Shown here in pieces: positions 5,366 to 32,000 of a DNA stretch of 32,000 nt. The DNA lies in NCBI RefSeq assembly GCF_029504745.1, contig NZ_JAQFIQ010000016.1, forward strand, positions 14,215 through 46,214. Reading direction: 5' to 3'. Below the pieces are notes generated by a model. It ran no database searches, was not told where the DNA came from, and worked only from the letters and a program-made list of their open reading frames with translations. This DNA is from Breznakia sp. PF5-3. GTDB taxonomy: Bacteria; Bacillota_I; Bacilli_A; Erysipelotrichales; Erysipelotrichaceae. Both the position numbers and the translations under genes were made by a program. Numbering within the stretch: the first letter of the stretch is position 1; every line of letters starts with the position of its first letter.

Positions 5366-7279
5366 AGGTTCTCTTACAAAGGATACGAGAAGTTCTATGA
5401 ATTCCTCATAGTCCCTAGCTGTTATGATACGTTTGATATTATCATTATCAGTTAGAATCATCGTCAATGTATCAAAGATTTCATTGAAAATATAACGTTC
5501 ATTTTTATTGAAAGCTAGCATCAAGACTAAATTTACAAGTTGTCCATCCCAATCAATTCCTTTATCGCTTATCATGATATTCATACTAGTTTTATTGGCA
5601 TTCATCTTTAATGCATGAGGAACTGCAAATGAATTAAAGGCGGTTGTAGCCATGCTTTCACGATCGCGAATCTCTTGTTCGAAACTTTCATCGACACAAT
5701 CTAGTTTCACCAGTTTTGAACACATATAGTGAATGGTTTCATCTTGGGTTTCTAAGGTTGAGTTTTTTTCAAACAAATCAGGCCAAGTTAATAAATGTAG
5801 ATGCTTTTTAAGCATTTGTTTTTTCTTTTCAATTTTGATTTCATCAATTTTATTGCGAATTGCATAAATGTCTTTATCATTTAATAAAAAGCTTACTGTA
5901 ATAGTTGGTATTGGCAATACAGAACTAATTGGAATTGTTGAAATAATCAAATCATAATTTGAAAGGTTTTCAAACTCTGTTTCGTCAGTGATAACGTTTT
6001 TCACAAGAATACTCGACGAAAAGTTTGTATTGATTGTGCTGATTAACTTTTTATTCATATCATAATAATTGGGACAATAAAGTACAGCATTGATTTTTGA
6101 ATGTAGTGCTTGTTGTGTTTCAAGAGCACTTCCAATATGAAATGCAATATAAGCAATTTCATCATCATTGATATACAATCCAGTTCGCTGTTCAATGCTG
6201 TGTGCCAAATTTAAAGCTGCATCATAAATAAGTGGACAAGATTGTTGAATCCCATTGGACAAAGGGTTTTTACTAGAATAATTATATTTGCTTCGCACTA
6301 AAAGGTTACGGATATGTAAAGCAAAACGTGTTAAAAATTCAGGTTCTGAAAGATTGATATAGTAATAAGAGTTTACTTCGTTTACTAACTCATTTACTAA
6401 TGTCATACATTCTTTTCCAACTAAATTTTCTAGATTTGCTTCTTTCACATTATTATAATCAGTCGCATTTGCATGAGAAATCAATAATAATGTAAGTTCA
6501 TATAATTCCCCTTCGTTGTATTCAATATCAAAATGTTTTTCTAAACGATCAACAACGTTTTTAGCTAATTCAAATTCATGAAGTTTCACCATTGGTTTTT
6601 CACCTTCACTGACAAAGCTTGTATAGTTATGTTTGATTCGGTCAATTGCTATAGTTATATGCAGCACAAGATTTGTCAGTGAATAGTCATTTACGAAGTA
6701 ATGGTATTCTTCGAAGGTTTCCATTACGACGTTTTTGATATATTCGATATCGATATCTGCGAAAGCACTTTGAACAGTTTTTAAATTTACAAAGTTTACG
6801 CTTGATTCATCATAAAGAATAGAACTCATTAGTTTACGCTTGTTCTTCTCAATTCCCTCTAAAGATAATTGATCATTATTATTAATAAGTTTTAAATCGA
6901 ACTTTGCAACTTTACGTTTTACTTTTTTAAGTTCATTTTTTAATGTTGACATGCTGATATATAGTTCATCACAAAGATCAAAAGCGTCAACAGAATCATT
7001 TTCTTTGACGAGACTATTAATAATGAAATCAACACGATCTTGAGAAGATTGTGGGAGGTTGTCTTTATTTTCATCTAATATTTTTCCAGCTTTTTCTAAA
7101 TCAATTCGATACCCTTCGCGTGAAGATATAATCGGATCTTGATAAAGTTGATTGATTTCAGAAATATAGTTTTTTACACTACGTGAAGAAACATCTAAAA
7201 TACTAGCTAAATTATTTGCTGTAACCCAACCACTACTATCCATGAGCGTTTTTACTAAAATTAAATATTTATCCTTCAT
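5363..7279 (-). CDS. PRD-domain transcriptional activator of the LicR/MtlR class (HTH - PRD1 - PRD2 - EIIB-like - EIIA-like)
   Basis: 638 aa. N-terminal wHTH (WVTANNLASILDVSSRSVKNYISEIN). PRD-type helices with conserved His (LVLHITIAIDRIKHN, FALHIRNLLVR, IAFHIGSALE). C-terminal EIIA(Mtl/Fru)-like segment FAVPHALK...LVLMLAF. Divergent from the PTS operon. Confidence 0.8.
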   Translation of the reverse strand: MKDKYLILVKTLMDSSGWVTANNLASILDVSSRSVKNYISEINQLYQDPIISSREGYRIDLEKAGKILDENKDNLPQSSQDRVDFIINSLVKENDSVDAFDLCDELYISMSTLKNELKKVKRKVAKFDLKLINNNDQLSLEGIEKNKRKLMSSILYDESSVNFVNLKTVQSAFADIDIEYIKNVVMETFEEYHYFVNDYSLTNLVLHITIAIDRIKHNYTSFVSEGEKPMVKLHEFELAKNVVDRLEKHFDIEYNEGELYELTLLLISHANATDYNNVKEANLENLVGKECMTLVNELVNEVNSYYYINLSEPEFLTRFALHIRNLLVRSKYNYSSKNPLSNGIQQSCPLIYDAALNLAHSIEQRTGLYINDDEIAYIAFHIGSALETQQALHSKINAVLYCPNYYDMNKKLISTINTNFSSSILVKNVITDETEFENLSNYDLIISTIPISSVLPIPTITVSFLLNDKDIYAIRNKIDEIKIEKKKQMLKKHLHLLTWPDLFEKNSTLETQDETIHYMCSKLVKLDCVDESFEQEIRDRESMATTAFNSFAVPHALKMNANKTSMNIMISDKGIDWDGQLVNLVLMLAFNKNERYIFNEIFDTLTMILTDNDNIKRIITARDYEEFIELLVSFVREP

Positions 7280-7346
7280 AATCCAACACCTTTATTGAGT
7301 AACTATCTTTATTATAACGTTCATTTGTTATTTTTCCTAACAATTA

Positions 7347-7394
7347 TTTTCACTATAAGAGTGAAAGTAATTGTTTTCACTTTGATGGTGAAAA
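7347..7394. promoter_or_regulatory. Two tandem palindromes TTTTCAC-N7-GTGAAA(G/A); candidate operator for the PRD activator
   Basis: TTTTCAC(7347-7353)-TATAAGA-GTGAAAG(7361-7367) and TTTTCAC(7374-7380)-TTTGATG-GTGAAAA(7388-7394). Spacing is 27 bp start to start. The array ends 7 bp upstream of a putative -35. Confidence 0.5.
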
Positions 7395-7401
7395 AGTGTA
7401 G

Positions 7402-7430
7402 TTGCGAGAAAAATTGAGTTGTTTGATAAT
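7402..7430 (+). promoter_or_regulatory. Putative sigma-A promoter of the PTS/GH1 operon
   Basis: TTGCGA (7402-7407), a 17-nt spacer, then GATAAT (7425-7430). SD AAAGGAGAA follows before ATG 7466. Confidence 0.45.
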
Positions 7431-7465
7431 GTTAGTAGAGAAACCGGTTTTAAAGGAGAATTAAT

Positions 7466-7780
7466 ATGAAAAAATTGAGTGTATTATTAGTGTGTGGTTC
7501 AGGAGCAAGTTCTGGATTTATGGCTGCTAACATGAGAAAGGCAGCTTCAAAACAAGGATTAGAAATTGATATTAAAGCAAGAAGTGAATCTGAGATCGAA
7601 AACTATATTGATGAAATTGATGCTTTGATGGTTGGACCTCATTTGGCTTATATTCTTGATGAAGTAGAAGATTATATTCACGATCACCCAGTAAAAGTAA
7701 TTTTGATGAGTGGAGAATATTACGCTACGTTAGATGGAGATAAAGCAATTACACATTTAATGGAGGAAATGAAAAAATAG
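7466..7780 (+). CDS. PTS lactose/cellobiose-family EIIB component
   Basis: 104 aa. LLVCGSGASSGFMA carries the phosphorylatable Cys in the usual position for EIIB(Cel/Lic). Confidence 0.85.
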   Translation: MKKLSVLLVCGSGASSGFMAANMRKAASKQGLEIDIKARSESEIENYIDEIDALMVGPHLAYILDEVEDYIHDHPVKVILMSGEYYATLDGDKAITHLMEEMKK

Positions 7781-7817
7781 ATTATTCAAGTTGAGAAAAT
7801 AAAAAAAGGAGAACAAA

Positions 7818-9077
7818 ATGCAAAAATTAATAGATTGGCTAGAAAATAGTTTCGCGCCAAAAATGAACAAGATTAACCATAATGTATGGGTAGTCACTTT
7901 AAAAGACTCTGTTATGCAGATTTTACCATTTATTTTATTGGGATCATTATTCTGTGTTGGAGCGGTTGTAGAGAATTATGTTGACCTTCCATTTTCATTC
8001 TGGACACCATTTGGGTGGACGATGGGAATGGTATCATTATTGGTAGCTTTCTTAATTCCATTCAACTTTTGTGAGAAAAAACGTTTAAGAAAACAAAGAT
8101 TAATCGCAGGATCAAGTGGAATTATTTTATTCTTAATTTCAATTACACCAGAAGTAGTTGCAGAAGGTGCACCAGGATTTGGATCTAGTGCATTGGGTGC
8201 AGGGGGAATGTTCTGTGCAATTGTAACAGGGATTTTAACTTGTATTGTATTTAACTTATTTGGAAAGTTTTCATTCTTTAAAGAAGATAGTGCGATTCCT
8301 GATTTTGTACGTCAATGGTTTGATTCTTTATTGCCAATATTTATTATTATTTTTGGTGGATTTATCTTAGTACAAGTAGCAGGTGTAAACTTATATGGAA
8401 TTGTAACTTCATTCTTCGAACCTTTAGGTGCGATGTGTAATACATGGTATGGATTTATTTTGATGAACTTCATCACGTGTTTCATTTACTCAATGGGTAT
8501 TTCAAGTTGGGTATTGACACCAGCAACAGAGCCAGTAAAATTGGCAAGTATTGCAGCAAACATTGCTATGGTTAGTGCAGGGACAGCAACCGTTGCTAAC
8601 TTGAATATGTATACTGAGACATTGGTTTATACATGTTATATGTGGATTGGTGGGATTGCATGTACGTTCCCATTAGTTCTGTTCTTGATGAGATCAAAAT
8701 CTAAAAAATTAAGTGCTTTAGGAAAAGCATGTTTAGGACCAGCAATCTTTAATATCAATGAACCAGTTGTATTTGGTTGTATTGCATGGAACCCTATTAT
8801 GATGTTACCAATGTGGATTATTGGTTTGGTAATCCCAGCGATTACTTGGATTGGATGTAAGGTAATTGCCTTTGCACCAATTCCTACAATTCAGTTTGAT
8901 TTGTGGTACTGTCCATATCCAATTTCTACATGGATTTCATCACAAGGATCGATTGCAGCGGTTATATTCGTTATTATAACGTTTGTTGTTGCAGCATTGA
9001 TTTGGTACCCATTCTTTAAAGCATATGAAAAACAATGTGTGGAAGAAGAGATGGCAGCTTTAGAACAAAAAAAATAA
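7818..9077 (+). CDS. PTS lactose/cellobiose-family EIIC permease
   Basis: 419 aa polytopic membrane protein. The N-terminus LENSFAPKMNKINHNVWVVTLKDSVMQILPFILLGSLF is typical of CelB/LicC-type EIIC. Confidence 0.85.
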   Translation: MQKLIDWLENSFAPKMNKINHNVWVVTLKDSVMQILPFILLGSLFCVGAVVENYVDLPFSFWTPFGWTMGMVSLLVAFLIPFNFCEKKRLRKQRLIAGSSGIILFLISITPEVVAEGAPGFGSSALGAGGMFCAIVTGILTCIVFNLFGKFSFFKEDSAIPDFVRQWFDSLLPIFIIIFGGFILVQVAGVNLYGIVTSFFEPLGAMCNTWYGFILMNFITCFIYSMGISSWVLTPATEPVKLASIAANIAMVSAGTATVANLNMYTETLVYTCYMWIGGIACTFPLVLFLMRSKSKKLSALGKACLGPAIFNINEPVVFGCIAWNPIMMLPMWIIGLVIPAITWIGCKVIAFAPIPTIQFDLWYCPYPISTWISSQGSIAAVIFVIITFVVAALIWYPFFKAYEKQCVEEEMAALEQKK

Positions 9078-9098
9078 AGAGAAGGAGCGTGACTTATT

Positions 9099-9437
9099 AT
9101 GATGAGTGAAACAGTAATGAACTCAGCGATGCAGATTATATTGCATGCTGGTGATGCAAGAGTATCATGTAAACAAGCACTAGATGCAATTGCCGCAGCT
9201 GATTTTAGTACAGCGGAAGAAAAAATGAAAGAAGCGCAAGACAAAATCACGCTAGCTCATAAAGTTCAAACAGACGCAATTCAGGAGGAAACACGGGGAG
9301 AAGAATCTGAATATTCTCTATTGTTTGCTCATGCTCAAGATACGCTAATGACAATTTATAGCGAAATCAATATAGCAAAGCAGTTACTGAAAATATTTAC
9401 AGTATATGACAAAAGAATTGCTGCTTTAGAAAAATAA
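9099..9437 (+). CDS. PTS lactose/cellobiose-family EIIA component
   Basis: 112 aa three-helix type with AGDAR, AHKVQT and LLFAHAQDTLMT motifs (HAQD histidine region). Confidence 0.85.
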   Translation: MMSETVMNSAMQIILHAGDARVSCKQALDAIAAADFSTAEEKMKEAQDKITLAHKVQTDAIQEETRGEESEYSLLFAHAQDTLMTIYSEINIAKQLLKIFTVYDKRIAALEK

Positions 9438-9492: not shown

Positions 9493-13837
<4,345 letters not shown>

Positions 13838-13839
13838 GA

Positions 13840-14439
13840 ATGTCAAAGACGATAAAAACAATCCTTGGTTTGTTCGTTGCGATAAATTTGACTGGATTAG
13901 GTGTAGCATTGTTTGTTGGAGTAAATCTGGGATCGGATACCATTACGGTTTTGGTAGATGGTATTCATCAAACCTTTGATATGAGTTATGGAGCTGCATC
14001 GAGAGTTTATAATATTATCATGTTGATGATTGCACTAGCAGTAGCACGTAAAAGTATTGGATGGACGACCGTTGTTTATGCATTAAGCGTAGGTTTTTCC
14101 ATGGATTTCTTTAACGAGGTGTTATCTATATTTGCAATGAATGACTTTTCATTAATTGCGAAAGTATTATGTATTATATTAGGTCAATTATGTTTTGGTA
14201 TGGCCTATGCATTGTTAATTATCTTTCGTAAAGGAATGAATCAAGCGGATGCGATATCCTATTATATTGCGGATAAAATACATACAAAATATGTTTATGT
14301 AAGAACTACCATGGATATCATGATGATTGTTGTCGGATATCTATTGGGAGGTATTGTAGGTATTGGTTCTATTATTGCAATGTGTACAACAGGGATATTT
14401 GTAAATATGTTTTTAAAAATTATGCATTATGAGCAGTAG
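13840..14439 (+). CDS. YczE/YyaS/YitT-like small polytopic membrane protein, copy 1
   Basis: 199 aa with about 5-6 TM segments. GLFVAINLTGLGVALFV..LGSDTITV is the N-terminal pattern I associate with the YczE/YitT group. It starts 2 nt after the GH1-3 stop with no clear SD, suggesting coupled translation. Confidence 0.55.
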   Translation: MSKTIKTILGLFVAINLTGLGVALFVGVNLGSDTITVLVDGIHQTFDMSYGAASRVYNIIMLMIALAVARKSIGWTTVVYALSVGFSMDFFNEVLSIFAMNDFSLIAKVLCIILGQLCFGMAYALLIIFRKGMNQADAISYYIADKIHTKYVYVRTTMDIMMIVVGYLLGGIVGIGSIIAMCTTGIFVNMFLKIMHYEQ

Positions 14440-14460
14440 TTAAGACTACTGCTTTTTATA
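14433..14460 (+). terminator. Intrinsic terminator between the two YczE-like genes
   Basis: Arms GCAGTAG (14433-14439, includes the stop codon) and CTACTGC (14446-14452) with loop TTAAGA, followed by TTTTTAT. Confidence 0.6.
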
Positions 14461-14471
14461 TGTTTTAAACA

Positions 14472-14480
14472 TGCTATAAT
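14472..14480 (+). promoter_or_regulatory. Extended -10 element (TGCTATAAT) for YczE-like copy 2
   Basis: Perfect TGnTATAAT 26 nt upstream of ATG 14506, followed by the SD AGGGGGAG. Confidence 0.5.
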
Positions 14481-14505
14481 AGCAATGTTGATTTAGGGGG
14501 AGTAT

Positions 14506-15105
14506 ATGAAAAATAAATTTATAAGAACAATACTTGGTTTATTTGTAGCCGTTAATTTAGCAGGTTTTGGTGCAGCTATCATGGTTCAAAGTGGTTTGGG
14601 TAGTGATCCGATTACCGTTTTTATTGATGGTTTACATCATACATTAGGAATCTCACTTGGCTGGGGGTCAAGAATGTATAGTGTTATAACATTGCTAATC
14701 GCTTTTATGATTGCTCGTAAAGATATAGGGTGGACGACAATTGTATTTACATTGAGTGTGGGCTTTACAATTGATTTCTATGATATTCTTTTGAAAAATT
14801 TTCCTATTGCAGATGTTGCATTTGGTTATCGTCTTCTATGCGTGTGTTTAGGCCAGGTGTGTTTGGGTGTTGCCTATGCGATACTGATTCTTTTCCGTAA
14901 TGGAATGAATCAATTGGAAGCGATATCCTATTATGTCAGTGATAAGCTAAATACTAAATTTGTTTATGTGAGAACAACTTTTGATGTCATCTTTTTAATA
15001 ATTGGAAAATTGCTTGGAGGTATAGTAGGTATAGGGTCTATCATTGCAATGTGTACAACCGGCTTTATTGTGAATATGATTTTAAAAATTATGCATTACG
15101 AATAA
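14506..15105 (+). CDS. YczE/YyaS/YitT-like small polytopic membrane protein, copy 2
   Basis: 199 aa, colinear with copy 1 over its full length. The last ~30 residues are almost identical (LLGGIVGIGSIIAMCTTG..VNM.LKIMHYE). Confidence 0.55.
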   Translation: MKNKFIRTILGLFVAVNLAGFGAAIMVQSGLGSDPITVFIDGLHHTLGISLGWGSRMYSVITLLIAFMIARKDIGWTTIVFTLSVGFTIDFYDILLKNFPIADVAFGYRLLCVCLGQVCLGVAYAILILFRNGMNQLEAISYYVSDKLNTKFVYVRTTFDVIFLIIGKLLGGIVGIGSIIAMCTTGFIVNMILKIMHYE

Positions 15106-17705: not shown

Positions 17706-18050
17706 ATGACGAATCAACGAATTGAACATTCTATGAAAATTTTATTGTTGGCAGGAGATGCTAGAGCAAAGTGCATGGAAGCACTAAGTGCAATTTCAAA
17801 TCAAGAAATTGATTACGCAAAAAAACTATTAAATGAGGCACAGGAAATTATAACAAATGCTCATAAAGTACAAACAGAAATTATACAAGAAGAAATATGT
17901 AAAGAATACAATGAGTATTCACTTTTATTTTCGCACGCACAAGATACATTGATGACAATTTGTAGTGAGATTAATATTGCGAAACAATTGATAAAGATAT
18001 TCACACAATATAATCAACGCTTGTGTGAGTTAGAAAAAGTACATATATAA
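17706..18050 (+). CDS. Orphan PTS lactose/cellobiose-family EIIA paralogue
   Basis: 114 aa, colinear with the EIIA at 9099..9437 (AGDARAKC, NAHKVQTEIIQEE, LLFSHAQDTLMTICSEINIAKQLIKIF). No EIIB or EIIC is adjacent. SD AAGGAGGGG. Confidence 0.85.
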   Translation: MTNQRIEHSMKILLLAGDARAKCMEALSAISNQEIDYAKKLLNEAQEIITNAHKVQTEIIQEEICKEYNEYSLLFSHAQDTLMTICSEINIAKQLIKIFTQYNQRLCELEKVHI

Positions 18051-18055
18051 AAAAT

Positions 18056-18082
18056 CAAACAAGATAATTGTTTGTTTTTTTT
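18056..18082 (+). terminator. Intrinsic terminator after the nnr / pfkB-like / EIIA operon
   Basis: Arms CAAACAA (18056-18062) and TTGTTTG (18068-18074) with loop GATAA, followed by T8. Confidence 0.65.
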
Positions 18083-18220
18083 ATTACCATGTCTATAAAA
18101 TTATAATATATCATCTTAATAATGATTAAAACACTAACAGCATTTCGCTTTAAGAGAGAATTTGTGTTTCATTCATCATGATAATGTGATAAAATATAAA
18201 TAAAATTAGGAGGGGGGAGC

Positions 18221-18643
18221 ATGGAAGAACAATTTAGAAGACAACTGTTTTTACTTGAAAACCAATTGGATGATACATATAGATTATTGAGAAGTAGCCA
18301 ACAAAAGATTGAAGATATAGAACAATTTATGATGTATTATCAAAGCAAAAGGGTTCATATTCTGCAAGGAATAGATCAAAAGCGAATAAAGCTTTCAAAT
18401 TACTATGATATATTTGAAAATGGAATAGCAACAAGAAACTATTCTGCATATATGCAGAATTTTTTGTGTGGTCAAAAAGGAGCTATAATCAACTTGGAAA
18501 GTGATAAAGCAGAAGATGAAATGAGACGAAAAAAAGCCCAATTACAAAATCAATTCTTGGATATAGAATGCAATATAAGATCATTGAATAACCAGTATGA
18601 AACAGTACAATGGGATTTAAGAAGGTATTTATCCGATAAATAA
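18221..18643 (+). CDS. Small coiled-coil protein, YwqH/DUF5082-like (T7SS toxin partner-like), first gene of the hydrolase operon
   Basis: 140 aa, heptad-rich and Pro-free, with two long helical stretches split by a central Gly-containing segment (ENGIATRNY...CGQKGA). Very strong SD AGGAGGGGGG. The layout resembles small helical partners encoded with LXG/T7SSb toxins. The family assignment is from memory only. Confidence 0.45.
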   Translation: MEEQFRRQLFLLENQLDDTYRLLRSSQQKIEDIEQFMMYYQSKRVHILQGIDQKRIKLSNYYDIFENGIATRNYSAYMQNFLCGQKGAIINLESDKAEDEMRRKKAQLQNQFLDIECNIRSLNNQYETVQWDLRRYLSDK

Positions 18644-18684
18644 AAGGATAAAAGATATTTAGTAAAGAGATAGGAGAAATAAGG

Positions 18685-19017
18685 ATGGATGAATTAAAAA
18701 TAAAAGATAATGATTTTAATCAAGTAGAAGATTATATAAATCAATTTATGAATGAACTAAAGGAGATATCGAAGCTGTATTTTGATAACATACATGTTAT
18801 TTATGAGTATGGATTACAAGATAGCGCTATGCAAGAAGTTATTTATGATAAGATTTACGCTCTTGTATATTTCACTTCAAGAGAGATTCAATCGGAAGTG
18901 GGGATGGAGAAAGATTATCATCCATTGCAAAAAGCAGTAAATGAATATAGTTTTACGCATAATGAATTGAATGCGTTTGTTTCAGAAATTGATGAAATTG
19001 ATTCAATATTATATTAG
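18685..19017 (+). CDS. Small helical protein (helix-turn-helix hairpin size), candidate T7SS targeting partner
   Basis: 110 aa, acidic, no signal peptide, with a central turn around EYGLQDSAMQ. SD TAGGAGAAA. Confidence 0.4.
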   Translation: MDELKIKDNDFNQVEDYINQFMNELKEISKLYFDNIHVIYEYGLQDSAMQEVIYDKIYALVYFTSREIQSEVGMEKDYHPLQKAVNEYSFTHNELNAFVSEIDEIDSILY

Positions 19018-19028
19018 GGAGAAAGAAT

Positions 19029-19322
19029 ATGGGAAAGACATTAATAATAAAACCAATCATATGTATGGACGCTTTACTTAAAATGAGAAAAGCAGCGGAA
19101 CAGATATTAAAAATGTATGAACATGATCTTGATGATTTATTAGCAAATAGTACAGGGAAATCAGTTGAGGAATTGAAAGTGATGGTTATGGAAATGCATG
19201 GATTGAAAACAGAACTGTATGATTTAATGAAAGAATTATCAGATGAAATTGATAGTTATTTGAAAGAACATATTGAGTTAGATGAAAAAACAGCATTGAA
19301 AATAAGAACCCAAAGGGAGTGA
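19029..19322 (+). CDS. Small helical protein of WXG100-like size, candidate T7SS targeting partner
   Basis: 97 aa with two predicted helices around a central NSTGKSVEEL turn and no signal peptide. Begins 11 nt after the previous gene; SD GGGAGAAAG. Confidence 0.4.
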   Translation: MGKTLIIKPIICMDALLKMRKAAEQILKMYEHDLDDLLANSTGKSVEELKVMVMEMHGLKTELYDLMKELSDEIDSYLKEHIELDEKTALKIRTQRE

Positions 19323-19324
19323 AT

Positions 19325-20086
19325 ATGAAAAAGCGGATAGTAATAGTCATATTAAATGTTTTCATTCTTAGTGGATGTAGATATATGAATGAAGATAGAA
19401 GCTTTACCAAAGAAGAAATAGAAGAGTCAATTTTGACGTATATGGAAGATAAATATGGAGAAAAGTTTACGATAGAAAATATTGGGTATAGTGCACCATT
19501 GGGGAATGCTGTAGAAGCATTTGTTATTTCAGAGGAAGATGAGCGAAAAAATGAAATACAAGTGAATTGGCGATATGAAGATGGGAAAGAATTAATAGAT
19601 GATAATTATACACATCTACTTTATAAAAAAGAAGCAAATGAGTTGATGGATCCATTAATTGAAGATGGGTTTAAAGAGTTTGAGTACGCAGCGTATAGTA
19701 GAATCAGTGATGATGTTCCGATTGAAAAATATGATAAGAATATATCTTTTAAAAAGATAGCGAAAACTAAGAAGGTTGGTATAGAAGTTGTTATTTTACT
19801 AAATGAGAATACAGTGGGTGAAGAAGAGAAAATTAAAGAAAAGATTCTTCAATTATATGAAGATACAAAGGATAAGACTACAGATGAAGTGCATTTTAAT
19901 ATAACTGTTTATGTTTGTGGGAATAATAATTTTTATGAGAATCAACCACTTATGCAACAGTTTAAAGAATTATATTCTTTGGATATAGGTGAAATTCCTT
20001 TCACTTTTTATGGGGCTGAGAAAGATGTAATTATTGAGTTTTTATTTAGTTCTAACGATATAGAGGAAGGGGTAGAGGAATTATGA
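19325..20086 (+). CDS. Lipoprotein, candidate immunity protein for the downstream hydrolase
   Basis: MKKRIVIVILNVFILSGC is a signal peptide with the lipobox L-S-G-C. The mature part is acidic and soluble. I prefer ATG 19325 (5 nt after GGGAG) over the track's GTG at 19319. Its stop overlaps the hydrolase start (ATGA at 20083-20086). Confidence 0.6.
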   Translation: MKKRIVIVILNVFILSGCRYMNEDRSFTKEEIEESILTYMEDKYGEKFTIENIGYSAPLGNAVEAFVISEEDERKNEIQVNWRYEDGKELIDDNYTHLLYKKEANELMDPLIEDGFKEFEYAAYSRISDDVPIEKYDKNISFKKIAKTKKVGIEVVILLNENTVGEEEKIKEKILQLYEDTKDKTTDEVHFNITVYVCGNNNFYENQPLMQQFKELYSLDIGEIPFTFYGAEKDVIIEFLFSSNDIEEGVEEL

Positions 20087-21630
20087 GTATTGAAGAAGTA
20101 CTATTGATATTGAATGCTTTGGTTTATTCAAATGGAGTCAATGAAAAAAGCATGGAAAAAAATGTATATGATTTAGTTGAAGATGGATTATTAAAACCAG
20201 ACGATGCAATTGCAACTAAAGAAGAATGGAATGCTTTGATTCGTACGATAAAACAAAATGAAACTTATTTCTCTAAAGTTAAATTGGTAGATATTGAAAG
20301 TAAAAAAGAAGCACAGAAGAATGTTACGTTTATAAATGAAAATGTTAATGCAGATAGAAAACAAGAAGTATATGTAGTTTTCAAAGGAACAGGATCATTA
20401 GAATGGCATGATAATGCGAAAGGTGCTTTGTTGATGGTACCACTTACTCCACAACAACAAAATGCTTTGAATTATGCAAATAGAATAGCTAAAGATTATA
20501 GTCAATATGATTTTATAGTCAGTGGTCATTCTAAGGGTGGAAATAAAGCACAAGTGGTTACACTTTTATGTGATAAAGTAAAAGCAGGATATTCTTTTGA
20601 TGGACAAGGAATGGGAAAAGGGTTCATGATTAAATATCGATTACAAATAGAACAAAACCAACATAAACTTGTTTCTATTTCAAATCGAAGTGATTTTGTG
20701 AATTCATTATTTAAGTCAGTAGCAGGAAAGGTGAAGTTTACGAATAATACTGGAAACTTGTTGGATTGGCTTATGAGTGGGGATAAGGATATAGCGATGC
20801 ATCAACATTCTCCATTGGCAATGTTTGAGATAAAGGATGGATATTTGCGAATGTTTGATACAAAAGGGATAAAGCAGGATTCAACTTCTTTATTTTTAGG
20901 GAATATGGTGGATTATTTTCGTGAGCATATGAGTGAAGATGATTTTGAAACGTTTGCAAATCTAGTGATGCATATGTTTGAGACTGGAGGATGTGGAGAT
21001 AAGCATTTTGATATTAAAAACATAGATCCAGAGTTTTGGGTACGATTAATAAATCATATATTGAAGTATGGAGAAGAATTAGGGATGAAGGAAAACGATA
21101 TGCTATTATTGTTGAGTAATCTATCAATCTTTATACCAGATGATAGTGTATGGGGTTATGTATTAGAAGCAATTAAGTTATTCAGAAATCCAGGAGGGAT
21201 TTTAGCAGATGCGATTATTGCAGATGAAACACCAAGACGGTTGAATGAAATAATGGTTGAGTATAATAGCAAATATAGTGAAGTGATGAAAAAGAAAGAA
21301 ATAATTCGAGATTTTAGTAGTGAAGCACAGGAAGCGATGCGAGATAGTTTGGCATGTGAAATAGATCGTTCGCAATTATCAATGGAATCAACACCAGGGT
21401 GGGGATATGTAGCAGAAATCTTATCGGATACAGGAGTGTTGGAAAGTCATCACAAAGTAGAGGAGTTATGCAATGAGTTATTGGACACATGTGAGGTAAC
21501 AGAAGCAAAGTATAATAAAATTATAGAAGAAGTATATGCGAAGGATCATGAGTTTGCACAGAGATTGAAGAAGAAAACAGATAGGATAAGAGATTATCGA
21601 GCAGTTATAAGAAAAGCGAGAAATAAATAA
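20083..21630 (+). CDS. Alpha/beta-hydrolase (lipase-like, DUF2974/Mbeg1-like GHSKGG type) with long C-terminal helical domain; candidate reverse-architecture T7SS lipase toxin
   Basis: 515 aa with no signal peptide or TM segment. N-terminal half: VVFKGTGSLEWHDN ... QQQNALNYA ... FIVSGHSKGGNKAQ (nucleophile elbow G-H-S-K-G, Ser150, codon 20530-20532) ... YSFDGQG. Residues ~270-515 are helix-rich and charged. Confidence 0.55.
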   Translation: MSIEEVLLILNALVYSNGVNEKSMEKNVYDLVEDGLLKPDDAIATKEEWNALIRTIKQNETYFSKVKLVDIESKKEAQKNVTFINENVNADRKQEVYVVFKGTGSLEWHDNAKGALLMVPLTPQQQNALNYANRIAKDYSQYDFIVSGHSKGGNKAQVVTLLCDKVKAGYSFDGQGMGKGFMIKYRLQIEQNQHKLVSISNRSDFVNSLFKSVAGKVKFTNNTGNLLDWLMSGDKDIAMHQHSPLAMFEIKDGYLRMFDTKGIKQDSTSLFLGNMVDYFREHMSEDDFETFANLVMHMFETGGCGDKHFDIKNIDPEFWVRLINHILKYGEELGMKENDMLLLLSNLSIFIPDDSVWGYVLEAIKLFRNPGGILADAIIADETPRRLNEIMVEYNSKYSEVMKKKEIIRDFSSEAQEAMRDSLACEIDRSQLSMESTPGWGYVAEILSDTGVLESHHKVEELCNELLDTCEVTEAKYNKIIEEVYAKDHEFAQRLKKKTDRIRDYRAVIRKARNK

Positions 21631-31527: not shown

Positions 31528-32000
31528 TGAAGTGACCCCAATAAGTTGGAAGTAATGTCATTGGTGTAATTGAAGGACTTGAGTTCTGTAAGCTACAGGA
31601 CTCAGTCCTTTTAATTTTACTTTAATGCGTTTAACGTTATAGTACTCAATATATTCTGTTATTGCTTTCCTTAGCTCTTGTAGATTCTTAAATGTGTGTT
31701 CTTCTCCATAAAACATTTCTGATTTCAATATCCCAAAGAAACTCTCCATCATCCCATTATCCATACTATTTCCTTTCCTTGACATACTTTGTTGAATTCC
31801 TTTTTCTTTTAATTCATGGATATAACTGAAGTGTTGATATTGCCATCCCTGATCGCTATGAAAGATTAAACCTGTGACTACTGGATTCCTTTCAAAAGCA
31901 TCTTTAAGCATCTCTTTGATTTGTTTTAAGTTTGGCGATATGGATAGATTAAATGAAACTACTTCGCCATTGAACCCATCTAGAATAGGTGATAAGTATA
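31528..32000 (-). mobile_element. IS3-family insertion sequence, terminal part (continues past the right window edge)
   Basis: The + strand from 31528 reads TGAAGTGACCCCAATAAGTTGGAAG, a TG-initiated terminal inverted repeat of the type seen in IS3/IS150-group elements. The transposase ORF ends 30 nt inside it. The element begins 3 nt after the lipoprotein stop codon (31522-31524). Confidence 0.7.
31558..32000 (-). CDS. IS3-family transposase OrfB (rve integrase core), C-terminal part
   Basis: The track ORF 31558..31911 is only the part after an internal Met. The frame stays open to 32000 (…YLSPILDGFNGEVVSFNLSISPNLKQIKEMLKDAF…). It has the HSDQGWQY (DDE region), MSRKGNSMDNGMMESFFGILKSE and C-terminal KLKGLSPVAYR motifs, which are classic for IS3 OrfB. 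Confidence 0.85.
   Translation of the reverse strand, partial: YLSPILDGFNGEVVSFNLSISPNLKQIKEMLKDAFERNPVVTGLIFHSDQGWQYQHFSYIHELKEKGIQQSMSRKGNSMDNGMMESFFGILKSEMFYGEEHTFKNLQELRKAITEYIEYYNVKRIKVKLKGLSPVAYRTQVLQLHQ

Follow-up and report, generated by a model that had tools for sequence, protein, structure and literature searches.

What would a bacterium do with a lipase-like enzyme that carries no export signal, ends in a helical tail of about 250 residues and is encoded directly after a lipoprotein? This question is raised by a 32,000-nucleotide stretch of Breznakia sp. PF5-3 (contig NZ_JAQFIQ010000016.1, positions 14,215 to 46,214; assembly GCF_029504745.1), referred to below as the window, in which a plus-strand cassette of five genes (18221-21630) encodes three small proteins (A, B and C), a lipoprotein and, last, a 515-aa lipase. 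In our assessment this cassette is very likely a module of the T7SSb form of the secretion system called type VII (T7SS), comprising an antibacterial lipase toxin in reverse domain order (i.e., with its targeting region at the C-terminus), three helper proteins and a lipoprotein antidote. With somewhat less assurance, we also think it probable that lipases of Pfam family PF11187 with this cassette make up a third family among the reverse lipase toxins of the T7SS, possibly the most widespread one. In this joint reading, export would proceed through an unannotated domain of ~110 residues, here called the RDF domain, together with a fixed trio of partners (Lap4-like, WXG100-like with a terminal D-x-F-L-Y, and Lap3-like); the RDF domain would work at either end of its protein, N-terminally in diverse non-lipase toxins and C-terminally in lipases; and lipoproteins of a new immunity family would neutralise the toxins.

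The lipase, its partners and its lipoprotein

The first-pass annotation had described the open reading frame (ORF) of the lipase as a 515-aa GHSKGG hydrolase, and all motifs on which this was based were recovered at the residues given: FKGTGSLEWHDN at 100-111, GHSKGG at 148-153 (nt 20524-20541), FDGQG at 172-176, SDFV at 203-206 and MHQHS at 239-243. Its assignment to the Mbeg1-like/DUF2974 family was borne out by the Pfam search, in which PF11187 (Mbeg1-like) matches residues 62-188 with an E value of 4.8e-11 and 43 bits, the gathering cutoff being 21.1 bits; Lipase_3 and DUF6792 match below the Pfam threshold only. PF11187 is also matched by 13 of 13 full-length homologues. The alignment of 37 homologues shows S150, D204 and H242 to be invariant, so that SDFV and MHQHS, which had been put forward as sources of the Asp and the His, both hold such a residue; because H242 is the invariant one, we take the second His of MHQHS to be catalytic. 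GHSKGGNK, SF.GQG and GT..W.DN are likewise invariant in the alignments of 13 and 37 homologues.

The AlphaFold2 model of the lipase, with a predicted local distance difference test (pLDDT) score of 82.4 and a predicted template modelling (pTM) score of 0.73, agrees with the proposed order of hydrolase first and helical tail last. The model has an alpha/beta fold over residues ~1-260 and is purely helical over 267-514, with a terminal helix of 63 residues, and it places S150 between a strand (143-149) and a helix (151-162). Foldseek neighbours of the N-terminal half are (fungal) class-3 lipases, feruloyl esterase A and the lipase effector 9cys of the type VI secretion system (T6SS), all of which speak for a hydrolase fold; in addition, one family member weakly matches the Tle1 catalytic-domain profile. 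A sequence search of the lipase against the PDB returned nothing. Altogether, profile, residue conservation and modelled fold confirm the predicted membership of the protein among the Mbeg1-like/DUF2974 lipase-like Ser-Asp-His hydrolases.

The absence of an export signal holds as well. No signal peptide was found in the window lipase, and its acidic N-terminus, MSIEEVLLILNALVYSNG, is a conserved helix of the hydrolase domain rather than a signal peptide; a Sec-secreted lipase was rejected on this ground. The LXG domain (PF04740) matched neither the window lipase, whose N-terminus is the hydrolase domain, nor 12 homologues.

Relatives of the lipase were collected by scanning 185,579 species-representative genomes with a pattern, which gave at least 560 confirmed relatives, and the locus counts below refer to the best 80 of these. 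The families of the three small proteins were defined with hidden Markov models (HMMs) built iteratively in this analysis (alignments A5-A7). Six of the 27 members of the A family match YwqH-like PF16888 (best E 1.8e-14), which we take to be the former DUF5082, and A orthologues hold the same position in the Breznakia, Enterococcus and metagenome cassettes. The B family has no Pfam match; it aligns with the WXG100 family over 81 columns (hhalign probability 80%) and has the C-terminal consensus FIxxIDExDxFLY-COOH, with D106 invariant and D103 and Y110 conserved above 90% (alignment A6). We regard B as a candidate carrier of an export motif. Members of the C family align with the WXG100 proteins of these loci over 93 columns (hhalign probability 93%), match DUF5344 (PF17279) in 5 of 28 cases, conserve G43 above 90% and, as a profile, match EsxB in the PDB over their full length (4iyh; E 1.4e-4). 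DUF5344 and DUF5082 proteins correspond to Lap3 and Lap4, which TelA, an LXG toxin, needs and which are exported along with it (PMC10801868), and the B. subtilis LXG toxin operon ywqH-ywqI-ywqJ-ywqK is headed by ywqH (PMC8321402).

The cassette recurs across Bacillota. Its order, A-B-C-lipoprotein-lipase, is found again in Breznakia pachnodae (Erysipelotrichales), which has the closest named lipase homologue (56% identity), in two Enterococcus species and in metagenome contigs. The neighbours of the B. pachnodae cassette are entirely different from those in the window; because the flanks differ, the cassette appears to behave as a mobile module that moves as a unit. Lipases with B and C upstream were also seen in three actinomycetotal loci, L022 (Propionibacteriaceae metagenome-assembled genome, MAG), L063 (Olsenella sp.) and L084 (Atopobiaceae MAG), of which the first two have A as well and the third has a split essC-like gene adjoining the lipase; the module is therefore not restricted to Bacillota.

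The annotated position of a lipoprotein directly upstream was also correct, the gene carrying a lipobox (LSGC20) and its stop codon overlapping the lipase start in the tetranucleotide ATGA. Among 35 homologues of the lipoprotein, the Cys of the lipobox never varies and the Gly before it is conserved above 90%, and the family stands directly upstream of the lipase in 45 of the 80 species-level loci. The family matches nothing in Pfam, DUF1433 included; its only solved relative is a hypothetical protein, PDB 4gl6_A, which matches profile positions 36-211 (E 3e-7). In B. pachnodae (L001:8259-10004; JAUSUR010000001.1), two lipoprotein paralogues, ~48-50% identical to the lipoprotein of the window, lie on either side of a 42-codon ORF that shares 60% identity with lipase residues 1-40 and is situated upstream of an intact lipoprotein-lipase pair. 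By its sequence, this short ORF appears to be what is left of a decayed toxin gene, next to which an orphan immunity gene was retained. Furthermore, four or five lipoprotein paralogues precede a single lipase in Clostridium sp. UBA10317 (L015). Since a lipobox, duplication and multi-copy arrays are how the immunity genes of polymorphic toxins behave, the lipoprotein is best read, by analogy, as a candidate immunity protein with a presumed protective function. With its extracytoplasmic anchor it would be placed where a cell must be protected from a secreted hydrolase of membrane lipids, in the manner of the immunity lipoprotein TilA discussed below.

Two lipoprotein-lipase pairs were also observed in each of the Paenibacillus loci L026 and L035, in which the lipases are 665-835 aa long and have the RDF domain internally, followed by an extra C-terminal extension.

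The RDF domain and linkage to type VII secretion

The ~250-aa tail of the lipase consists of two parts, a helical middle region (~262-408) that is conserved among close relatives only (29-sequence alignment of cassette-type lipases) and a ~110-aa domain (409-515). For the latter, which is absent from Pfam, we coined the label RDF domain in this analysis. In the window lipase it comprises RDFS (409-412), a GWGYV turn (439-443) and a long terminal helix (452-514), and it includes the basic tail RIRDYRAVIRKARNK (501-515), while the motifs shared by lipase tails are RDF(S), WD.WY, Y..K.ID.N and IF..V...D...A. No Pfam family matched the RDF domain of the window lipase, of its homologues or of the N-terminal-type proteins described below, and no enzymatic or wall-binding domain matched the lipase C-terminus, in line with the non-catalytic tail that had been proposed.

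A profile of the last ~140 lipase residues (A9) was searched against 1.84 billion representatives and gave 596 matches, of which the best 150 were re-scored for the placement of the domain. Among these 150, the RDF domain is C-terminal in 72 lipases and internal in 8 longer ones, whereas it begins at residue 1 in 40 non-lipase proteins of 290-630 aa; the others are 6 proteins of 215-273 aa that have it at the C-terminus and lack a lipase core, being probably partial, and 24 short fragments (<200 aa). The N-terminal-type proteins have the consensus M-x-RDFSE...KW.DFTDW.GDRWYDF...YHKKVIDKNN...IF..V, from which their N-terminal region and the lipase tail are clearly recognisable as one and the same domain. 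None of the 40 contains a lipase domain. This finding supports the published observation that lipases occur in reverse orientation only, no lipase in forward LXG orientation having been found so far (PMC13560087). A combination of N-terminal RDF domain and lipase had appeared for P0486 and P0502 and was rejected as an artefact of the full-length profile, as neither has a GxSxG motif.

The gene contexts of the N-terminal-type proteins connect the two placements. P0413 is encoded at the end of a series formed by YukD, EssC, WXG100 and 139-, 95- and 92-aa proteins, and these three small proteins are members of the A, B and C families (E 5.5e-33, 2.9e-20 and 8e-17, respectively). P0427 belongs to a stand-alone 141-95-87-toxin-148 cassette with housekeeping flanks, and P0457 to an island that holds an LXG/GH-E toxin with Imm33 as well as a PF11187 lipase cassette. 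From these contexts and the placements among the 150 matches it follows that the RDF domain and the partner trio probably serve both orientations, the C-terminal placement being confined to lipases. Some 40 proteins of this type (L150:8001-9473, L151:7001-8266, L153:7001-8323 and ~37 more, P0413-P0507) begin with the RDF domain at residue 1 and continue into strongly variable C-terminal regions that match no Pfam family, one of them ending in a hydrophobic, glycine/alanine-rich stretch. They have the look of forward T7SS polymorphic toxins, a class without annotation so far, that use the A-B-C trio.

A WXG100 domain forms the C-terminus of some sister lipases that share the upstream lipoprotein. 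This was found in L038, where the domain spans residues 379-473 (E 3.6e-9 with our own profile; Pfam WXG100, E 4.9e-5), and also in L081 and L066.

Linkage to T7SS was scored as an essC homologue within 10 kb of the lipase at species-level loci. This was found at 19 of all 80 loci, at 16 of the 45 with the lipoprotein and at 11 of the 27 with both B and C (in the other 16, essC is further than 10 kb away or the contig is short), compared with a single one of the 30 with neither lipoprotein nor B. By our estimate, a single-copy gene in a genome of several Mb would be adjacent by chance in ~1% of cases. The arrangement at individual loci points the same way: a 32%-identical lipase homologue directly follows YukC/EssB, EssC and a 772-aa protein in L007; a WXG100 gene heads the homologous cassettes of two Enterococcus species and of the metagenome contig L005, where the lipase is followed by a DUF4176 gene; and in the congener Breznakia blatticola, EssC, a 737-aa membrane protein and WXG100 are encoded consecutively. 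In an uncultured Clostridia MAG (L010), EssB-EssC-WXG100 stands ahead of a tandem pair of complete lipase cassettes.

About 30 of the 80 related loci (L016, L017, L023, L034, L045 and others; Parvimonas, Clostridium) encode shorter PF11187 proteins of 375-470 aa and lack the lipoprotein and B genes, with T7SS genes nearby in one only. This short branch probably has a different biology.

Known lipase toxins and competing explanations

Reverse T7SS substrates were first described in 2023, and two families are known as of August 2026, Tsl1 and Tsl2, both of Staphylococcus aureus (PMC13560087); TslA and TslM are the lipases for which this has been shown experimentally (PMC10730906, PMC13560087). 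TslA is a T7SS-secreted phospholipase A of reverse domain order (Garrett et al. 2023, PMC10730906), whose immunity protein is the upstream-encoded lipoprotein TilA and whose two partners, TlaA1 and TlaA2, are encoded downstream (PMC10730906). The window cassette resembles this system in that both toxins combine an N-terminal class-3-lipase-like Ser-Asp-His domain with an all-helical C-terminus and have no signal peptide, in that the lipoprotein gene stands directly upstream, overlapping or co-transcribed with the toxin, and in that cassettes with small helical partners occur inside T7SS loci and away from them. However, TslA (sequence from the source data of PMC10730906) and the window lipase are similar at the nucleophile elbow only (BLASTP E 0.1); the window-family profile reaches 38% probability over the hydrolase core only and aligns nothing of the C-terminus; and PF11187 does not match TslA. 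Between the lipoprotein profile and DUF576, the TilA family, an alignment was obtained within the signal peptide alone, and the three partners of the window cassette lie upstream, as opposed to two downstream. Membership in Tsl1 was rejected, there being no full-length TslA homology, no DUF576 immunity protein and no downstream Tla1/Tla2 genes.

Tsl2, represented by TslM of S. aureus (Higginson et al. 2026), has a divergently encoded, membrane-anchored DUF1433 immunity protein and one WXG100 partner (PMC13560087), and its homologues are reported to be widespread in Bacillota (PMC13560087). Here the likeness lies in the order of a lipase domain before a helical C-terminus, which in the window protein is a candidate for targeting, and in the WXG100-type partner, whereas the candidate immunity protein of the window is a co-directional lipoprotein of ~250 aa without a Pfam family, and its partner genes number three instead of one. 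We identified putative Tsl2-type lipases on metagenome contigs by their context, not by published accessions (L110, L129 and L135; 402-403 aa, encoded divergently from DUF1433 and ahead of a ~105-aa gene); against these the window-family HMM gives E >10 and hhalign 2.6%, and PF11187 is absent from them. Membership in Tsl2 was rejected on the lack of DUF1433 immunity, of a single WXG100 partner and of homology to these context-identified lipases. The contexts of an abundant DUF1433 protein were all toxin-less lplIII loci, and a DUF1433 scan of viral contigs found nothing.

Canonical LXG toxins (TelA of Streptococcus intermedius, PMC10801868; the YwqJ operon, PMC8321402) share with the window cassette the YwqH-like and DUF5344 partner families, the position of the partners upstream of the toxin and the general architecture of a polymorphic toxin with an immunity protein. 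They differ from it in that the candidate targeting domain of the window protein is C-terminal with no Pfam LXG match, that its cassette adds a third partner, B, with the C-terminal D-x-F-L-Y, and that its toxin domain is a lipase; membership was rejected for want of an N-terminal LXG domain. T6SS Tle effectors are similar as GxSxG lipases neutralised by extracytoplasmic immunity proteins, and the 9cys entry matched by Foldseek is an effector-immunity complex, but they belong to another secretion system, whose adaptor domain is absent here, and the window context is Gram-positive. Uncharacterised reverse lipases have been noted at T7SS loci of Paenibacillus and Neobacillus (PMC11217815); since essC is adjacent in several Paenibacillus loci of our set, these may belong to the window family.

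As in known reverse T7SSb lipases, the window lipase thus has an N-terminal lipase domain without Sec/Tat signal and Lap/WXG100-type partner genes in its cassette, joined by two features of context, the adjacent lipoprotein gene and an essC linkage that is seen in the homologues and not in the window. The first-pass annotation had suggested a secreted effector with C-terminal targeting information, and this suggestion is supported by the T7SSb-linked cassette and by the N-terminal occurrence of the RDF domain on T7SS-locus proteins with the same partners. It can be refined in two respects, the export route being best read as type VII specifically and the lipoprotein as an immunity protein.

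The fold with its invariant catalytic residues, cassette conservation, T7SSb linkage in other species, homology of the partner families and the dual orientation of the RDF domain are observed; complex formation, secretion, substrate, antibacterial target, immunity and a T7SSb of the organism's own are inferred, and can be put together as follows. The 515-aa lipase would be made in the cytoplasm without a Sec signal, and its RDF domain would be bound by A (YwqH/Lap4-like), B (WXG100-like, ending in D-x-[FYI]-[IL]-[YF]) and C (DUF5344/Lap3/WXG100-like). Together they would form an elongated bundle of helices, to be recognised by the EssC ATPase as a composite export signal; the C-terminal motif of B and the V-Y-x-x-[DE] of the terminal helix of the toxin are, speculatively, candidate elements for recognition by EssC. 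Once outside, the class-3-lipase-like domain (Ser150-Asp204-His242) would hydrolyse the membrane lipids of neighbouring bacteria, while the producer and its kin would be shielded by the lipoprotein, which is anchored on the outer face of the membrane and should, by prediction, bind the lipase domain and block it.

Several observations weigh against this proposal. The 32-kb window contains no T7SS core gene and no WXG100 gene at Pfam level, the T7SSb was seen in a congener only, and the flanks of the cassette are housekeeping genes. The window copies of A, B and C fall below every Pfam and NCBIfam threshold, so that their family assignment rests on the iterated in-house HMMs; NCBIfam gave nothing for any of the five cassette proteins. 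For the C-terminal half, hhalign of residues 262-515 and 380-515 revealed no similarity to WXG100 profiles or to the TslA C-terminus, and the model of isolated residues 262-515 (pLDDT 72, pTM 0.47) found no PDB counterpart by Foldseek (best E 1.2), for which reason the C-terminal half cannot be called LXG-like on structural grounds. The turn motif reads GWGYV/GWDYV in the window protein and its two closest relatives, versus WDVWY in the family consensus. Finally, the literature searched defines no substrate for any PF11187 member and the best Foldseek match of the lipase is a feruloyl esterase, which makes lipid specificity a supposition, and the target may not be bacterial, given how the founding member of the family was found.

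This founding member of PF11187, Mbeg1 of Gemella sanguinis, was isolated as an NF-kB-inducing activity in human cells and proposed as a microbiome effector (PMC6867899). It shares the Pfam family with the window lipase, but the accessible part of that report gives an NF-kB reporter phenotype only, with no secretion route, partners or immunity protein. An alternative in which the lipase is a T7SS effector directed at a eukaryotic host (insect or animal gut epithelium), the lipoprotein being a self-protection or maturation factor, draws on Mbeg1, on the insect-gut genus Breznakia as the source of the closest named relative and on the fact that T7SS effectors can have host targets. We consider it unlikely, since the duplication of the lipoprotein around a toxin remnant, the multi-copy arrays (L015), the tandem cassettes (L010) and the co-occurrence with LXG/Imm33 polymorphic toxin islands are hallmarks of toxin-immunity systems and favour an interbacterial role; moreover, the functional analogues TslA and TslM are antibacterial, and TslA is dispensable in a mouse abscess model (PMC10730906). 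Host-directed and antibacterial roles are not mutually exclusive and may coexist.

Slightly less likely again is an orphan or silent cassette, in which the T7SS is non-functional or export has been lost and the lipase stays in the cytoplasm, inactive or co-opted. The lack of a T7SS gene within 32 kb and the off-consensus turn motif would fit such a state, and so would the differing, housekeeping-flanked sites here and in B. pachnodae, as for a mobile accessory module. Yet none of the five ORFs is broken, they are tightly packed (12-42 nt apart, or overlapping by 4 nt) and translationally coupled, the catalytic and RDF-domain motifs are kept, distance from essC or a short contig is equally found for the 16 other B-and-C-type loci mentioned above, forward-type cassettes also stand alone (L151), and a congener has an EssC-WXG100 locus. 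A housekeeping esterase or lipase, cytoplasmic or Sec-independent, with a tail for oligomerisation or membrane association and unrelated small genes nearby, could explain the missing signal peptide and would suit a functionally uncharacterised family with 30 of 80 loci (~375-470-aa proteins, e.g., in Parvimonas) that lack the lipoprotein and B and show T7SS linkage in one, but we reject it as very improbable because of the cassette context: the window lipase sits in the T7SS-linked subfamily with lipoprotein and A-B-C, its tail is the domain that heads T7SS-locus toxins, and the cassette moves between genomic sites as a unit.

If the preferred reading of an antibacterial T7SSb module is true, these lipases would form a third reverse family that differs in both its lipase family and its immunity family, has a set of three partner proteins and occurs in gut and environmental Bacillota and in a few Actinomycetota. 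The occurrence of the same domain and trio in both positions would then offer a natural experiment on how EssC reads a signal at either end of a substrate. This reading would also give an uncharacterised Pfam family named after Mbeg1 a concrete secretion route and a candidate role. For docking the lipoprotein to the lipase domain, 4gl6_A could provide the structural template.

Features and surroundings of the cassette

The coordinates of the cassette and its parts are collected in Table 1.

Table 1. Positions of cassette features in the window
Feature	Position	Strand	Description
Leader, likely promoter region	18051..18220	+	170 nt; strong ribosome-binding site AGGAGGGGGGAG just before A
Gene A	18221..18643	+	140 aa; coiled-coil partner, YwqH-like / Lap4-type
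Gene B	18685..19017	+	110 aa; WXG100-like helical hairpin, C-terminal IDEIDSILY-COOH
Gene C	19029..19322	+	97 aa; WXG100-superfamily hairpin, S-x-G turn, DUF5344 / Lap3-type
Lipoprotein, candidate immunity protein	19319..20086	+	255 aa from GTG, or 253 aa from ATG 19325
Lipobox L-S-G-C20	19367-19378	+	in the lipoprotein
Lipase ORF, putative toxin	20083..21630	+	515 aa
N-terminal lipase-like alpha/beta-hydrolase domain	20083..20865	+	residues 1-261; PF11187, invariant triad, AlphaFold2, Foldseek
Catalytic candidates	Ser150 (20530-20532), Asp204 (20692-20694), His242 (20806-20808)	+	
Helical middle region	20866..21306	+	residues ~262-408; AlphaFold2 helices, low column conservation
RDF domain, candidate T7SS targeting domain	21307..21627	+	residues 409-515

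The leader contains one sigma-70-like match, a weak one (18178-18206), and the promoter scan found fewer promoter-like sites than in shuffles. No terminator was found 3' of the lipase gene. The only terminator-like site of the cassette is a perfect palindrome with an 8-bp stem, ATTCTGCATATATGCAGAAT, followed by a T-run, inside gene A (18441-18460); it could attenuate transcription or be due to chance.

Upstream, the cassette is flanked by a cellobiose-type phosphotransferase system (PTS), three GH1 genes, YjeF and an extra PTS-IIA gene, and downstream by a VCA0040-like membrane protein and PFOR. The extra gene, a stand-alone lactose/cellobiose PTS-IIA gene (17706-18050), directly precedes the cassette and is split from the main PTS operon (7466-9437) by the three GH1 genes, two DUF6198 genes, YjeF and a 300-aa ORF for which no family was found. 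The GH1 genes are tandem paralogues (477, 483 and 480 aa; 9493-13837), and they are followed by the two DUF6198 genes, tandem 199-aa paralogues as well (13840-15105). The GC skew turns from negative to positive at ~7000-7500, exactly where gene orientation switches from a PRD/Mga-type regulator on the minus strand to the PTS operon on the plus strand. An insertion-sequence integrase core fragment (rve_2/rve_3) lies on the minus strand at 31558-31911, at the window's right end.

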